DNA of 64,000 nt from Nostoc sp. (GCF_036917815.1 NZ_JBALEK010000098.1:1915-65914), one strand, 5' to 3'. Shown: positions 43,574 through 48,753, numbered from the stretch's first letter. Made by a program: numbers and translations. Notes: generated by a model not told the origin, from the letters alone.

Positions 43574-43595
43574 GTCTTAGACCTCTTGCAAAAGC

Positions 43596-43860
43596 TGACT
43601 TTTCACGGTATCTGGAAAACCTCTCTTCTATTTCTCTCTGCTTCTAGGCTACGGTGTACACACAAGTCGAATTACCCTCCTTATAAAGGTGGGAAACAGG
43701 AAATCTAATTCCCTCCCCTTTATAAGGGGAGGCTTAGGGTGGGGTAAAACCTTGGTTAATCAGCTATCTCAGACTTGTGTGTACACTGTATCCTTTTCGG
43801 AGAGAGACTTTGAATTTTCCCCTTGCCCGCGTCGGGAAGGGGGTTAGGGGGTTAGGTTTT
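43596..43860. repeat. Composite repeat (ctgacttttcacg end plus nested gctacggtgtacacac element)
   Basis: Shares modules with 17931, 32763 and 50337. Confidence 0.7.
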
Positions 43861-43876
43861 TTACCAGAAGTGCTAA

Positions 43877-46792
43877 TCAATCGGGTCTTAAATCATTAGA
43901 TAATTCTACAATTCCCCTAGAGCCATCAATCCGTACACGTTGACCATCTTGCAAGATCCATGTAGCACCATGAACATCCATAACTGCGGGAATCCCATAC
44001 TCACGAGCCACGATCGCACCGTGAGAAAGTCTTCCACCAGCTTCGGCAATTAATCCCCCAGCCCTTAGTAACAAGGGTGCCCAGCCGGAATCTGTGTAAG
44101 GCACTACTAGAATCGTATCTCGGTCAATGTCTGGCACATCTTGTAAATTTCGCAACACCTTCACTCTCCCTTCGGCTTGCCCGTGACTGGCTCCAATACC
44201 TTGTAAAATTTGGTCAGAGTAAAGTTCCGAGGGGGCTAAGGGGTGAGGTGGTGTATTGCCGTAGACTAAAAGAGGGACTTGAATAATCTCGCTATCTTGC
44301 CCAAATTGCGATCGCCTCAATTCCACTAACTCATCCAATTCCTCAATTAACTTGGAATCTTCACCTACAACTAAACGCCGCACTTGATCAAAGTTTAGAA
44401 AAAAGATATCGTCTATTTTCTTGAGTAAACCAGACTTTAACCAAATCTTCTCTAAGGCGACAAAACTCCAACGTAATTCAGCCAAAAGCCGGGAATAAAC
44501 TTCGGTAACTCTTCCTTTAATATCCACACGCCGTTGCACAAAAGAGCGCTGGCGTTTCCTAGCAAAGATACTATTAATCGCGTCTTTCGCGCCTGATTGT
44601 GGTTCGTTACCCTGCATTAACTGCACAAACATCTGCTTGATCATTTGGGGATTTTCCCGCCAAGTGGGAACGGAGATATCAGTTCCCACTTCACTTAAAT
44701 AGCCGTAATCCTGAAGCAATTCGTTAAATGCTTGGAGGATCTTTTCTCCCTCTGGGGTTTGCTTTAATTGCTCAAATACTTGCTGTGGATCAAACTCAAG
44801 CAATATTTGCTTGGCATCTGTGGCGATCGCACTGAGCGATCGCAATGCTGCAATCTCTGGAGTTACACTATTATCAATTTGCCCATCCTTCACCCGGAAA
44901 ATCGCCTGTCTCAGAGCAGCACTCAAGGGTGCTAAAATGCTATAATAGGTTCCCTGACGCAGTAACTCTAAGGTAAAATCAATTCTTGCTAACAGCCTTG
45001 GCGGTTCTAAGTTATCTACATCTTCCTCTGCCAACTGCGACAACCCAGGAATGAAGCGTTTATGATAATCCTGCTTGAAGTCTTTTTCTAAACTTAATTC
45101 CCGCTTCAGCAACTTTCCTAGTCCTGGCAAATTTTCCCAGATTGACTTCCAAGACGGCTTACTTAATTTAGCTCCTCTGGTTAAAAATTCCAGACTTTCT
45201 GGCGGTAGTCCCATGCGGAGAAAAATATCTCCTAAGAGGGATGCATTAAAGTAGGCTCTCGAATACTGCAAACTTGCTGTTTCACTGAAGTCTAACCCCA
45301 AAGCGCGTTCGGCTAAAACTAAAGTAAAAAATTCTCCCCAAACTCCACAAGTTAAGGGACGATTAATTGACCATGTTAAGGGATGAATTACTCCCGGAAT
45401 CACTTCGGCGGCGATTTTGCGTGTCCAGATGGGCAGTAGTGTGGTGATTGGTCGAGATTGTAACACCCAAAGGGTTTGACCGTCGTAACTCCACTCGATA
45501 TCTTGAGGAGTGCCATGATAACGTTTTTCCAGTCGGTAGGCTAAGTATGCAACTTGTTTAATTAATGCTTGTGGGACTCGTCCTTGACCCTCTAATTGTA
45601 TAGAGTAAGAATTTTCGGCTTCAACGACAAAAGCGCGATATTGTTCTGGTGTGACTTTTCCCGAAACGACTTGCGTCGGGCTGCCTGGAAGGGCTTCAAT
45701 GATGATCGCATCACCTTGTTGGGTAATGGGATCGCGGCTGAAAGCAACGCCAGAATATACACTCTGGACTTGTTGTTGAATCAACACAGCCATTGCTGTA
45801 TCATTTAAGCCGCGATCGCGCCGATATTGGACAGCAGAAGGATGATTGTAGGAAGCTTGAACTTGAGCGATCGCTGATTGTAATGCTTCTGGGCTAGTAA
45901 CATTTAAAATTGTTTCATACTGCCCAGCCGCAGAAGCGTGTTCTGAATCTTCTCCGATAGCAGAGGAACGTACTACCAAAGGGGATAATTCTGATGGCTG
46001 GAGAAATTCTGTCAAGAGTTGAGGATCATCGATTGGGGCGAGTACCCACCCCTTCGGGACTGGATAACCCCAACGCTTAATTTGAGATAACGTCGCGGCC
46101 TTTTCTCCGACAATGGCAGCATCTAATTCTTCATCTAAAGAAACCATTGTGCGTTGGCGTAGCCCGTCGTAGACATCGCCGCGTAAAAATTCCAACATCG
46201 CTTGCGATTCTGTTTGTGCCTCTTGGGTTGGGAGGTTCATATCATCAGGAATTTTGGTGTAAATCCAGCCCATTAAACCAGCTAAGGCCACAGCAGCAAG
46301 TATTCTGGGAATATCGCTAATATGCAGAAGTGCCACAAACAAAGGAAAAAGCAGCAAAACCCCAAATTTGACTACCTTTCTTGATTGCAGAATTGTCAAA
46401 CTAATACCTGCAAAGAAAGATACAAACATTGCTACCAGTGGATCGTGTACGATAAATCCCCAGACAACATTTGTCGTACCTGCTCCTCTCCCTATCCAAT
46501 ATCTACCAATTACTAGAGCAATCAGGGCAATCAATTCCCAAGAAGAGCCATCTGGGAAGAAAAAGCGGGTGAGTGAGACTGCCGCAATCCCTTTAAAAGC
46601 TTCTGACAAGACTGCCAGAATTCCGACAAATTTACCGCCATGATAGAAGGCAGCCGATACACTAATGTTTCCTGTACCAAGTTGCGATAACTGCTTCCCC
46701 TTGAGGGCGTAAGTTATCCATGAAATTAAGGGTAATCCGCCCAAGAGGGGGCAGACAATTAAAATAACTAAAACACCCCAAGGTTCAAACAT
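43877..46792 (-). CDS. Fusion of PlsY-like membrane domain, ATP-grasp (PPDK_N), middle domain and phosphohistidine swivel domain
   Basis: GTGNIS, SEAFKG, GRGAG; GEKAATL, VRSSA.GED..AGQY, IEW..LQSRPIT; GGRLSHGAIVAREYGIPAV. Confidence 0.88.
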   Translation of the reverse strand: MFEPWGVLVILIVCPLLGGLPLISWITYALKGKQLSQLGTGNISVSAAFYHGGKFVGILAVLSEAFKGIAAVSLTRFFFPDGSSWELIALIALVIGRYWIGRGAGTTNVVWGFIVHDPLVAMFVSFFAGISLTILQSRKVVKFGVLLLFPLFVALLHISDIPRILAAVALAGLMGWIYTKIPDDMNLPTQEAQTESQAMLEFLRGDVYDGLRQRTMVSLDEELDAAIVGEKAATLSQIKRWGYPVPKGWVLAPIDDPQLLTEFLQPSELSPLVVRSSAIGEDSEHASAAGQYETILNVTSPEALQSAIAQVQASYNHPSAVQYRRDRGLNDTAMAVLIQQQVQSVYSGVAFSRDPITQQGDAIIIEALPGSPTQVVSGKVTPEQYRAFVVEAENSYSIQLEGQGRVPQALIKQVAYLAYRLEKRYHGTPQDIEWSYDGQTLWVLQSRPITTLLPIWTRKIAAEVIPGVIHPLTWSINRPLTCGVWGEFFTLVLAERALGLDFSETASLQYSRAYFNASLLGDIFLRMGLPPESLEFLTRGAKLSKPSWKSIWENLPGLGKLLKRELSLEKDFKQDYHKRFIPGLSQLAEEDVDNLEPPRLLARIDFTLELLRQGTYYSILAPLSAALRQAIFRVKDGQIDNSVTPEIAALRSLSAIATDAKQILLEFDPQQVFEQLKQTPEGEKILQAFNELLQDYGYLSEVGTDISVPTWRENPQMIKQMFVQLMQGNEPQSGAKDAINSIFARKRQRSFVQRRVDIKGRVTEVYSRLLAELRWSFVALEKIWLKSGLLKKIDDIFFLNFDQVRRLVVGEDSKLIEELDELVELRRSQFGQDSEIIQVPLLVYGNTPPHPLAPSELYSDQILQGIGASHGQAEGRVKVLRNLQDVPDIDRDTILVVPYTDSGWAPLLLRAGGLIAEAGGRLSHGAIVAREYGIPAVMDVHGATWILQDGQRVRIDGSRGIVELSNDLRPD

Positions 46793-47064: not shown

Positions 47065-47241
47065 TTAGTTTAGCGCATAGGCAGCTTGCAGCGCCCAGAT
47101 GATGAGAGCAGCGATCGATCCCAAAAGCAACACGGTAGAGATAGTGACTACTTTGGGGGAATCTGCACCCTCAAATTTCATAATTCCTCGGTTTAAGTCG
47201 GACACAGCTTTGTAATCCTCTCTTGTTGGAGCATGAAACAT
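47065..47241 (-). CDS. 58-aa single-TM small protein, absent from the ORF track
   Basis: Translated by hand: MFHAPTREDYKAVSDLNRGIMKFEGADSPKVVTISTVLLLGSIAALIIWALQAAYALN. Confidence 0.65.
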   Translation of the reverse strand: MFHAPTREDYKAVSDLNRGIMKFEGADSPKVVTISTVLLLGSIAALIIWALQAAYALN

Positions 47242-47407: not shown

Positions 47408-48373
47408 GTGAAAATAGCACTGATTGTGATTTCGGCTGTGGTTGTGGGATTGTTTGTGGTAGTAGAGATTGGACTGCGATCGCTCTTTGGTTTTGGTAAT
47501 CCTCTGATTTATATTGGCGATGAACAGATTGGTTATTTATTGGCTCCTAACCAGCGTACTCGCCGTTTTGGTAATCGCATTGAAATTAATGAATATTCTA
47601 TGCGAGGTAGTCCGATAAAAAAGATACCTGCACCTTCTGGGCTGCGAGTTTTACTTTTAGGTGATTCTATCGCTAATGGTGGTTGGTGGACAGATCAGAC
47701 TAATACAATATCTAGTTTGATGATGCGTTCTCTGGCATCATCCACTAGAAGTAATTATCGGGAAGTAGAAGTGCTAAATGCTTCAGCTAACTCTTGGGGT
47801 CCAAGGAACGAATTAGCTTATTTAGAGAAGTTTAGCAATTTCAACGCCCAAGTGGTAGTGTTATTAATTAATACCGATGATTTATTTGCTACTGCTCCTA
47901 CCTCTTTACCAGTAGGACGCGATCGCAACTATCGAGATAGTAAACCTCCCCTAGCATTAGTGGAAGTGTGGCAGCGTTATATCGCCAAGCAAAAGCCAAT
48001 TCCGGAAATGAAAGCACTAGAAAATGAACCAGGCGATCGCGTCGGGATTAATCTGGAAGCGATCGGTAAAATTCGAGCCATAACTCATCAAAGCAACAGC
48101 CAATTCCTGCTAGTTATGACTCCCTTGCTGCGAGAAATTGGTGAACCAGGCCCCCGCGATTACGAAATTAAAGCCCGTCAGCGCTTGAGCGACTTTACTA
48201 AAACACAGCAAATTAAGTATATAGACTTTTTACCGAGCTTCAATTCAAATACCAACCCCCAAGGTTTATATCACGACCACATTCACCTCAACTTGCAAGG
48301 CAATAAATTTGTCAGTGAAGTTATAGAGCGATCGCTTTTGGAAATACTAGAGGAAGTGCCACTTCGTCAGTAA
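47408..48373 (+). CDS. SGNH/GDSL hydrolase family protein, N-terminally anchored
   Basis: LGDSIANG, NASANSWG, INTDD, DHIHLN. Confidence 0.88.
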   Translation: MKIALIVISAVVVGLFVVVEIGLRSLFGFGNPLIYIGDEQIGYLLAPNQRTRRFGNRIEINEYSMRGSPIKKIPAPSGLRVLLLGDSIANGGWWTDQTNTISSLMMRSLASSTRSNYREVEVLNASANSWGPRNELAYLEKFSNFNAQVVVLLINTDDLFATAPTSLPVGRDRNYRDSKPPLALVEVWQRYIAKQKPIPEMKALENEPGDRVGINLEAIGKIRAITHQSNSQFLLVMTPLLREIGEPGPRDYEIKARQRLSDFTKTQQIKYIDFLPSFNSNTNPQGLYHDHIHLNLQGNKFVSEVIERSLLEILEEVPLRQ

Positions 48374-48403: not shown

Positions 48404-48753
48404 GTGACATACTCCACACACTCCTAAGAGTGAGTGTGGGCTTCTCAATGACTCTTCTATGAAGACATTAATTGAGCTTTAAGGGCGTGTGTCCCACGCG
48501 CCTTTATATTTATACTTGCATTTAGATCACGACATAAACTGACTTTACAGTTAGGACAGTCATGAGTTCTTTGAGATAAAGTCTTTTTAACTCTAGTTCC
48601 ACAGTTAGAACATTCAATACTTGTGCCATTTGGATTTATTGCAACTACTTTCAAACCAGCGTTTTCGGCTTTGACTGTAAGTATTGAAATAAATTGACTC
48701 CAAGCAGCGTCACTAACACTTTTAGCTAGTCTTTCTTTTCGTTTGAGCTAAAA
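48404..48753 (-). mobile_element. Internal-deletion derivative of the 20546-22109 tnpB element
   Basis: 48404-48732 matches 20546-20874 (329 bp, no differences seen by eye) and is joined to the last 21 bp of the left end (22089-22109). Confidence 0.92.

Follow-up and report, generated by a model that had tools for sequence, protein, structure and literature searches.

Enzymes of the rifampin phosphotransferase (RPH) type are built from an ATP-grasp nucleotide-binding domain, a middle, substrate-binding domain, and a C-terminal domain that carries a swiveling, phosphate-accepting histidine. The Listeria enzyme (RPH-Lm; PDB 5FBS, 5FBT, 5FBU, and 5HV1; NF041857) needs Lys22, Arg117, Thr136, and His825 for activity; Glu297 coordinates Mg2+, and an apex motif, Arg666-Glu667-Lys670, serves the second phosphotransfer (PMC4844700). 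PlsY, the acyl-phosphate:glycerol-3-phosphate (G3P) acyltransferase, is a seven-helix membrane protein whose active site faces the cytoplasm. In the Aquifex aeolicus enzyme (aaPlsY; PDB 5XJ5-5XJ9), G3P is held by a clamp of Ser35, Arg45, Lys104, and Asn180, and its 2-OH is bound by Ser142 and His177 (PMC5700162). The acyl-phosphate occupies a site formed by His92, Thr41, and the loop-3 "phosphate hole" (residues 104-107), which is mainly backbone-based; Asn37, which contacts no substrate and serves only the transition state of acyl transfer, stabilises the oxyanion intermediate (PMC5700162). Arg45, Ser142, His177, and Asn180 are each required for G3P binding, and the variants S35T and K104R retain partial activity (PMC5700162). 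A 64,000-nucleotide stretch of DNA from Nostoc sp. (GCF_036917815.1, NZ_JBALEK010000098.1:1915-65914; the window) contains a gene whose product joins these two kinds of protein, a PlsY-like membrane domain being fused to an RPH-type dikinase. Full-text literature searches found no paper on such a fusion or on the corresponding pair.

Other described systems resemble parts of this protein. The prodiginine ligases PigC, HapC, and RedH share the three-domain, RPH-type architecture and phosphorylate a hydrophobic substrate, from which the phosphate leaves when a second substrate attacks, the "activate then condense" chemistry that is proposed below for the fusion. However, they carry out both steps within the RPH-type protein, belong to secondary metabolism, and have no membrane domain reported in the sources used here. 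The two-component aromatic dikinases HpeHI and MarK and phenylphosphate synthase are RPH-type enzymes acting on small hydrophobic hydroxyl compounds, and they indicate that the family tolerates split polypeptides; these enzymes are soluble and catabolic, and HpeHI is divided between the ATP-grasp part and the swivel and substrate domains rather than between a kinase and a membrane partner. FakA/FakB with PlsX/PlsY provides an established precedent for a kinase that makes acyl-phosphate from membrane-derived fatty acid for PlsY. Unlike the fusion, it uses a soluble lipid-binding subunit and feeds canonical PlsY, with G3P as the acceptor; it has no homology to the fusion, and the folds of the two kinases are unrelated. 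MacB-type (type VII) ABC transporters, a class that includes MacAB, LolCDE, DevBCA, HrtBA, and BceAB, act on membrane-embedded amphiphiles, and gene sets of the same ABC_tran, MacB_PCD/FtsX, and HlyD composition are operon partners of some relatives of the fusion.

The Nostoc gene occupies positions 43877-46792 on the minus strand, an open reading frame (ORF) that was checked by translation, by its codons, and against full-length homologs. It encodes 971 aa, and its stop codon lies at 43877-43879. Residues 1-185 (46238-46792) form the seven-helix, PlsY-fold membrane domain, with a match to PF02660 (G3P_acyltransf, the PlsY family) at residues 14-175 (60.7 bits; cut-off 24.1). A cytoplasmic linker (residues 186-217; 46142-46237), with a column identity of 0.53 and a partly conserved F-x-F-F-R-G-D motif, leads to the ATP-grasp domain (residues 218-455; 45428-46141), which contains K231, R275, T294, and E433 and matches PPDK_N at residues 270-452 (155 bits). 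The RPH-type middle domain (residues 456-859; 44216-45427) is defined by alignment to the rifampin-binding domain of RPH-Lm and by a precomputed Pfam assignment, PF27448 ("Rph_4th"). The phosphohistidine swivel domain (residues 860-971; 43880-44215) matches PEP-utilizers at residues 890-960 (78.8 bits), and its His924 is encoded at 44021-44023. An earlier description of the gene, made from the DNA alone (the original prediction), had pointed to three strings, WTRKIAAEVIPGVIHPLTWS, IYTKIPDD, and GTGNISVSAAFYHGG; these are residues 456-475, 177-184, and 39-53. Scans for promoters and terminators at the locus gave background levels.

The fold assignment rests on an AlphaFold2 model built from a 72-sequence alignment (mean pLDDT 80.8, pTM 0.60), in which the linker has the lowest confidence (pLDDT <50 at residues 207-214). 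When this model is compared with the PDB by Foldseek, the top match is RPH-Lm (5hv1; E 2.4e-30, ~900 aligned columns), and the N-terminal domain (N-domain) matches Aquifex PlsY (5xj5-5xj8) with a target TM-score of 0.72-0.75 and an rmsd of 2.7-2.9 Å over 181 columns. This comparison, which the original prediction had suggested, recovers both RPH and PlsY, and thus both halves of that description hold at the level of the fold. With the N-domain alone as a phmmer query, PDB sequences give no PlsY match; a profile or fold comparison is required. Since the architecture is kept across cyanobacterial homologs at 42-93% identity, it is far beyond chance.

Within the kinase half, the best solved relative by sequence is again Listeria rifampin phosphotransferase (residues 271-964, E 3.3e-51; phmmer, 5FBS), and the fusion and RPH-Lm share ~21% identity. 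The order ATP-grasp, middle domain, C-terminal swivel histidine, as first read from the DNA, matches Listeria RPH over this range. The catalytic motifs reported as intact are indeed so: the equivalents of RPH-Lm Lys22, Arg117, Thr136, Glu297, and His825 are K231, R275, T/S294, E433, and H924, and they are invariant in 72/72 homologs. The differences from RPH-Lm are the added N-terminal 7-TM domain and an N-terminal ATP-grasp sub-domain that appears, from inspection of the alignment, to be shorter in the fusion. In addition, RPH is a sporadic resistance gene, whereas the fusion is a conserved, housekeeping-like gene. The region corresponding to the RPH-Lm apex motif is an insertion in the profile alignment, where the register is ambiguous and where Q753, R755, K759, Y766, and R774 are invariant. 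The most conserved stretch of the whole protein, residues 456-545 (mean column identity 0.92), corresponds to the RPH substrate-binding region, which argues for one fixed substrate across cyanobacteria. NCBIfam models for the characterised relatives score far below their cut-offs (RPH model NF041857, 234.8 bits vs an equivalog cut-off of 999; PigC and RedH models, 220 vs 1300 and 208 vs 1350).

The PlsY-like half shares with PlsY, besides the seven-helix fold, motif 1 [G-(S/T)-G-N], motif 2 [(D/E)-x-x-K-G], a Gly-rich loop 3 with a basic residue, and a cytoplasm-facing active site, which is compatible with a cytoplasmic kinase. Functional residues were compared between 41 diverse fusions and canonical PlsYs, with the register checked by hhalign (probability 99.3%); the counterpart of Lys104, which is Ala104 by MAFFT and Lys/Arg102 by hhalign, was taken from the hhalign register. 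At the acyl-phosphate site, Asn42 occupies the Asn37 position in 41/41 fusions, Ser/Ala (S/T/A46; S46 in the Nostoc protein) occupies the Thr41 position, and Arg (R97) replaces His92 in 41/41. The family has a 7-residue deletion ahead of loop 3. Lys/Arg102 then stands at the Lys104 position and is followed by an invariant G-A-G-T-T-N; the Nostoc loop is R102-G-A-G-T-T-N108, in which G103, G105, T107, and N108 are invariant.

At the G3P site, Thr (T40) is present at the Ser35 position in 39/41 fusions, Tyr (Y50) replaces Arg45 in 40/41, Lys/Arg142 (K142 in Nostoc) occupies the Ser142 position, Tyr/Phe178 (Y178) the His177 position, and Ile/Met/Leu181 (I181) the Asn180 position. The four residues that aaPlsY requires for G3P binding, Arg45, His177, Asn180, and Ser142, have thus become Tyr, Tyr, Ile, and Lys in 37-41/41 family members. 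The G3P clamp is incomplete: two of its four positions (Arg45 and Asn180) are lost in 40-41/41, while Thr40 is a conservative change and Lys/Arg102 is kept. The C-terminal PlsY motif is not alignable by hhalign. The proposed alignment of the PlsY His and Asn sites thus bears out the reported absence of R-H-x-x-N, with Y178 and I181 at the positions of aaPlsY His177 and Asn180. Read from these residues, the domain appears remodelled rather than decayed, with its donor (acyl-phosphate) half-site largely kept and its G3P half-site largely gone. The original prediction had concluded that the protein is not an acyltransferase. Loss of most of the G3P site speaks strongly against a normal G3P acyltransferase, but the broader statement goes too far, as the largely retained donor half-site leaves room for a transferase step onto another acceptor.

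Within Nostoc's family, 37/37 sampled genomes have the full-length fusion. Beyond it, at 44-100% identity, the fusion occurs in the majority of the order's remaining families and reaches several further orders of the class. Among the carriers are Nostoc, Desmonostoc, Crinalium, Rippkaea PCC 8801, Gloeothece, Chroococcidiopsis, Lyngbya, Coleofasciculus, Trichocoleus, Geminocystis, Halomicronema, and Leptolyngbya. In the sample searched, the fusion was not found in one family (f24, 0/14 genomes) or one genus (g26, 0/5). Outside the class, this search gave weak, kinase-only matches alone. Most homologs are labelled by PGAP as "glycerol-3-phosphate acyltransferase", and all others bear the source name "pyruvate phosphate dikinase / pyruvate, water dikinase". 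A search of 1.84 billion representatives with the N-domain yields only 135 matching proteins. The strong ones are fusions, whole or in fragments, and canonical PlsYs are reached only at E ~1e-7 and weaker. Unlike PlsY itself, the PlsY-like domain is a paralog that stands beside a canonical PlsY and is always associated with a dikinase. Stand-alone forms of the N-domain were considered and set aside; the short representative matches are mostly contig fragments or degenerate paralogs.

The degenerate paralogs (P0139, P0159, P0168, P0175, P0177, and G247:C12:1159727-1161088) have eroded PlsY-like motifs and eroded ATP-grasp residues, and some genomes hold such a copy alongside an intact fusion. 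Among representative sequences, erosion of the PlsY-like motifs usually goes with erosion of the ATP-grasp residues, a co-decay that is suggestive but confounded by overall divergence. Separately, three otherwise full-length matches (G050:C44:27089-29968, G093:C9:28-2934, and G213:C1:3522224-3525100) each contain a single in-frame stop (TAG or TAA) and may be pseudogenes or sequencing errors.

The same pairing occurs in a second, more distant clade. Two representatives, P0198 and P0205, have the Nostoc architecture at 27-29% identity; a scan for relatives with P0205 as the query returned nothing. Relatives of P0198 are fused in a Dehalococcoidales metagenome-assembled genome (MAG), a Bathyarchaeia MAG, and another archaeal MAG, and further fused forms are present in Lokiarchaeota, an "Asgard group" MAG, Thermotogota, and other archaea. 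Anaerolineae, among them the cultured Levilinea saccharolytica KIBI-1, have a separate kinase gene; a PF02660 gene of 239-269 aa directly precedes it in 6/7 loci and follows it at a distance of 1.4 kb in the remaining one. Split, adjoining forms are also carried by a Thorarchaeota SMTZ1 contig and three other contigs, and at one locus the kinase is directly preceded by a PlsY-like region with a frameshift. A PlsY-like part is fused or adjacent in all 20 informative second-clade loci, and the association is obligate. In all of these partners the G3P clamp is incomplete, and the acceptor-side residues Arg45, Ser142, His177, and Asn180 are missing from each clade. Each genome checked retains a separate, more canonical PlsY; three Anaerolineae genomes each hold a second, higher-scoring PF02660 paralog elsewhere. 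The Nostoc protein has the same combination that characterises these pairs: a PF02660 part lacking the G3P clamp, fused or adjacent to a dikinase with intact catalytic residues.

Support in the kinase tree is 100/100 for the cyanobacterial clade and 99/99 for the second clade. Within the latter, fused forms are intermingled with split ones, so that at least four changes between them are needed. The tree does not resolve the deep branching relative to unlinked RPH-like kinases, including whether the two PlsY-associated clades are sisters. At nine loci of unlinked RPH-like kinases from other phyla (L135-L143) there is no PlsY-like ORF nearby, and thus the association is specific to the two kinase clades.

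Many second-clade loci are also linked to an exporter. In 12 of the 20 informative loci, the pair or fusion lies directly beside genes for an ABC ATPase and a MacB_PCD/FtsX permease. These are the Anaerolineae loci L157-L163 and the archaeal loci L155, L170, L173, L177, and L181, and the gene order varies by lineage. An HlyD-family adaptor gene is nearby in four of the Anaerolineae loci (L158-L161), and L. saccharolytica KIBI-1 carries the complete four-gene operon. In cyanobacteria, neither the window nor any of 141 loci has such genes close to the fusion. At one exporter-linked locus, in a Lokiarchaeota MAG (L173, 193-5905 and 11028-13107), the fusion and MacB transporter are flanked by genes for GT87, a UbiA prenyltransferase, a GtrA-family protein, an FAD-oxidoreductase, and two SDR proteins; the polyprenyl-phosphate-sugar pathway that these flanks suggest was set aside, as the context does not recur in the related locus L177.

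Together the two parts probably act on a membrane lipid. A membrane-lipid or hydrophobic substrate, as first proposed from the DNA, is the most economical reading, and it gains support from the MacB-type linkage and from the presence of the two parts, fused or split, in several phyla. In the mechanism that we favour, though only tentatively and at rather less than even chances, a membrane lipid is first phosphorylated by the kinase, and the phospho-lipid then serves the PlsY-like domain as the donor for an acceptor other than G3P. By homology with RPH, the ATP-grasp domain would bind ATP, His924 would take the beta-phosphate with release of AMP and Pi, and phosphorylated His924 would carry the phosphate to the highly conserved middle domain, where a hydroxyl or carboxylate oxygen on a lipid-like molecule in the cytoplasmic leaflet would receive it. 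The phospho-lipid might then enter the PlsY-derived domain, where a pocket for the lipid phosphate would be formed by Asn42 (the oxyanion residue), Ser46, Arg97 (which replaces His92), and the Gly-rich phosphate hole together with Lys/Arg102. The lipid moiety would be handed to the non-G3P acceptor, with phosphate as the leaving group. By analogy, such a second step would share its chemical logic with PlsY, which uses acyl-phosphate, and PigC, which uses a phosphorylated aldehyde. In the second, non-cyanobacterial clade, the adjacent MacB-type ABC exporter would probably handle either this product or the phospho-lipid. Phosphorylation followed by transfer is favoured because a PlsY derivative that keeps the pocket for a lipid phosphate and not the site for G3P is most simply the next enzyme after the kinase.

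Several observations weigh against this mechanism. The evidence gathered names no substrate, product, or acceptor, and no neighbor that could point to a pathway is conserved among the cyanobacterial loci. The RPH-type enzymes characterised so far act on hydroxyl groups of small molecules, whether soluble or hydrophobic, and no member is known to form an acyl-phosphate. The RPH apex motif Arg666-Glu667-Lys670 has no clear counterpart in the fusion, and conservation of the oxyanion Asn is not strict among the split partners of Anaerolineae and Thorarchaeota. The co-decay of motifs may merely reflect overall divergence. Finally, the pTM of the model is only 0.60.

Archaea are reported to have no PlsX (PMC6431249). 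Thus, archaeal PlsY-like proteins would be without the usual supplier of acyl-phosphate, which fits a donor supplied by a kinase, and the linked kinase could fill the role of PlsX there. A wider proposal, which we consider possible although doubtful, is that Bacteria and Archaea contain a PlsX-independent system of lipid activation. In such a system a swivel-His dikinase would make an acyl- or other lipid-phosphate in the membrane, a PlsY-derived transferase would pass the lipid to a non-G3P acceptor, and in many lineages a MacB-type exporter would take the product. It would follow that some, at least, of the "PlsY" genes in Loki- and Thorarchaeota belong to this system and do not encode G3P acyltransferases.

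The explanation that ranks next after phosphorylation and transfer, and that also has a real though lesser chance of being correct, is that the protein is a kinase of a lipid or other hydrophobic metabolite and carries out no second chemical step. The phospho-compound would be the end product, and the PlsY-derived domain would extract or present the substrate or would hold the phosphorylated head group. The characterised relatives, RPH, HpeHI, and the phenol kinases, all stop at a phosphorylated product, and a phosphate-hole loop that is built from backbone is equally suited to binding. The residues of the G3P site are lost and no replacement set for a new acceptor was found; the adjoining MacB-type pumps could export an amphiphilic phospho-lipid. 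However, the invariant Asn42 corresponds to a PlsY residue whose only service is to the transition state of acyl transfer. In addition, the RPH-type middle domain already binds substrate and is the best conserved part of this protein, so that a second binding domain seems redundant.

It is unlikely that the protein belongs to a detoxification module, in which a toxin or antibiotic that partitions into the membrane would be captured from the bilayer by the PlsY-like domain, phosphorylated as RPH phosphorylates rifampin, and expelled by the MacB-type pump. The nearest solved relative is an antibiotic-resistance kinase, and the 12/20 second-clade operons, together with HlyD in the four Anaerolineae loci, have the layout of MacAB-type efflux systems. 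Yet a putative substrate pocket that is ~92% conserved, in a gene that is near-universal in large cyanobacterial lineages, fits a fixed endogenous substrate better, the 141 cyanobacterial loci have no pump linkage, and the score against the RPH model (235 vs 999) is low.

Equally improbable is a role as an anchor, with a degenerate PlsY-like domain simply tethering to the membrane a kinase whose substrate is soluble or peripheral. Such a role would account for the replacement of several PlsY functional residues and for a PF02660 score of 60.7 bits, where the canonical PlsY of the same genome scores 183. However, column identity in the N-domain (0.78) equals that of the catalytic ATP-grasp domain (0.76), and the invariant residues cluster at the PlsY active-site motifs rather than at random TM positions. 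Moreover, the motifs decay together with the kinase residues, and many genomes keep the partner as a separate, adjoining gene, which a simple tether would not need.

There is very little to recommend a genuine PlsY isozyme, that is, an acyl-phosphate:G3P acyltransferase that the fused kinase would regulate or supply. The PF02660 match is above the gathering score, PGAP gives most homologs this name, and aaPlsY with S35T or K104R keeps partial activity. However, the G3P-binding residues are replaced in 37-41/41 family members, a canonical PlsY of 230 aa (183 bits) is encoded separately, on a different contig of the Nostoc genome, and NCBIfam yields no PlsY-equivalog match but only PRK14416, at 25.5 bits against a cut-off of 222. 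Phosphoenolpyruvate (PEP) synthase or pyruvate phosphate dikinase (PpsA/PPDK), the older annotation, is scarcely credible despite the PPDK_N and PEP-utilizers domains and the source label "pyruvate, water dikinase", as Pfam finds no PEP/pyruvate-binding TIM barrel in the 971-aa protein, the His domain is C-terminal and not central (the RPH/PigC arrangement that the original prediction had recognized), and the NCBIfam scores fall far under the cut-offs (193 vs 598-740 and 50 vs 843 for PpsA/PPDK; the PEP-synthase-like "PRK06241" models likewise, the cut-offs for these and for the RPH and PigC models spanning 866-1300 bits).

The neighbors of the cyanobacterial fusion vary. All-vs-all clustering of ORFs from 27 diverse cyanobacterial loci found nothing recurrent except the fusion itself. 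Two nearby genes had been suggested as partners, and neither survives as one. The first is a tail-anchored ORF of 58 aa (47065-47241, minus strand; no Pfam or NCBIfam hit). At 108/109 loci from Nostoc and its family, it shares the strand of the fusion and lies upstream of it. However, it is near-universal in the Cyanobacteriia sampled (123 of 301, spanning almost every family), including genomes that lack the fusion; the linkage is confined to Nostoc's family and one neighboring family, and elsewhere the two are unlinked. The protein, a widely conserved, unnamed small membrane protein, is probably a lineage-specific neighbor and not a functional partner. The second, an SGNH/GDSL hydrolase (47408-48373, plus strand; Lipase_GDSL_2, 45 bits), is a sporadic neighbor rather than a conserved partner; 57/109 loci from Nostoc and its family have it close to the fusion, as do 2/20 diverse cyanobacterial loci.

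A third gene, encoding a 115-aa cupin, overlaps the stop codon of the fusion by 4 nt in 60/80 Nostoc loci (e.g., L003, 10913-11260). Neither the window nor the rest of the genome, which is 99.85% complete, contains it, and 20 diverse loci lack it as well; the cupin is thus dispensable. On its downstream side, the fusion is separated from a convergent gene for a TonB-dependent receptor by a 300-bp gap (43574-43876) that contains palindromic, repeat-like sequence. At 48457-48654 (minus strand), a 65-aa ORF with CxxC...CxxC zinc-finger motifs is consistent with a truncated copy of TnpB.

Other associations are seen in particular lineages. Three different esterase-type genes adjoin the fusion in an Asgard MAG, a Thermotogota MAG, and Nostoc, that of Nostoc being the SGNH hydrolase; those of the Asgard MAG (L174, 8953-10659) and the Thermotogota MAG (L175, 4890-5849) encode PF12146 alpha/beta-hydrolases that resemble each other only weakly (25% over 104 residues). 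A ferrochelatase/CbiX-like gene adjoins the pair in two unrelated contigs (L156, 10456-11730; L180, 8168-9403), a URO-D-family gene is convergent to the pair at L155 (13098-14222), and L180 also carries FecCD/Peripla_BP_2 genes; these neighbors may indicate a link to tetrapyrroles or metals. In a Bathyarchaeia MAG, an extra, stand-alone PlsY-like gene of 206 aa that lacks the G3P clamp (L154, 5904-6524, minus strand) lies upstream of the fusion on the opposite strand.

A membrane enzyme of ~960 aa is thus present in most of the cyanobacterial families sampled, and the same pairing occurs in Chloroflexota, Thermotogota, Bathyarchaeia, and Asgard archaea. Judged by its active-site residues, both of its public labels, "glycerol-3-phosphate acyltransferase" and "pyruvate phosphate dikinase", are contradicted. 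The finding also bears on the "lipid divide" debate, in which plsY homologs of Loki- and Thorarchaeota have been read as possible bacterial-type lipid genes (PMC6737245, PMC6431249, PMC13400652). The PF02660 genes inspected in the Thorarchaeota SMTZ1 contig, the Lokiarchaeota MAG, and the "Asgard group" MAG are each linked to a kinase and encode an incomplete G3P clamp. They may be among the genes counted in those papers; P0412 and its adjoining PF02660 gene come from Thorarchaeota SMTZ1-83, the genome named in PMC6431249. L. saccharolytica KIBI-1, with its cultured status and four-gene operon, offers a practical experimental entry point, as do tractable Nostoc or Anabaena strains if they are carriers. 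Discovery of the substrate would probably add a new reaction to membrane-lipid biology, either a His-relay lipid kinase or a route in which a lipid is phosphorylated and then transferred.

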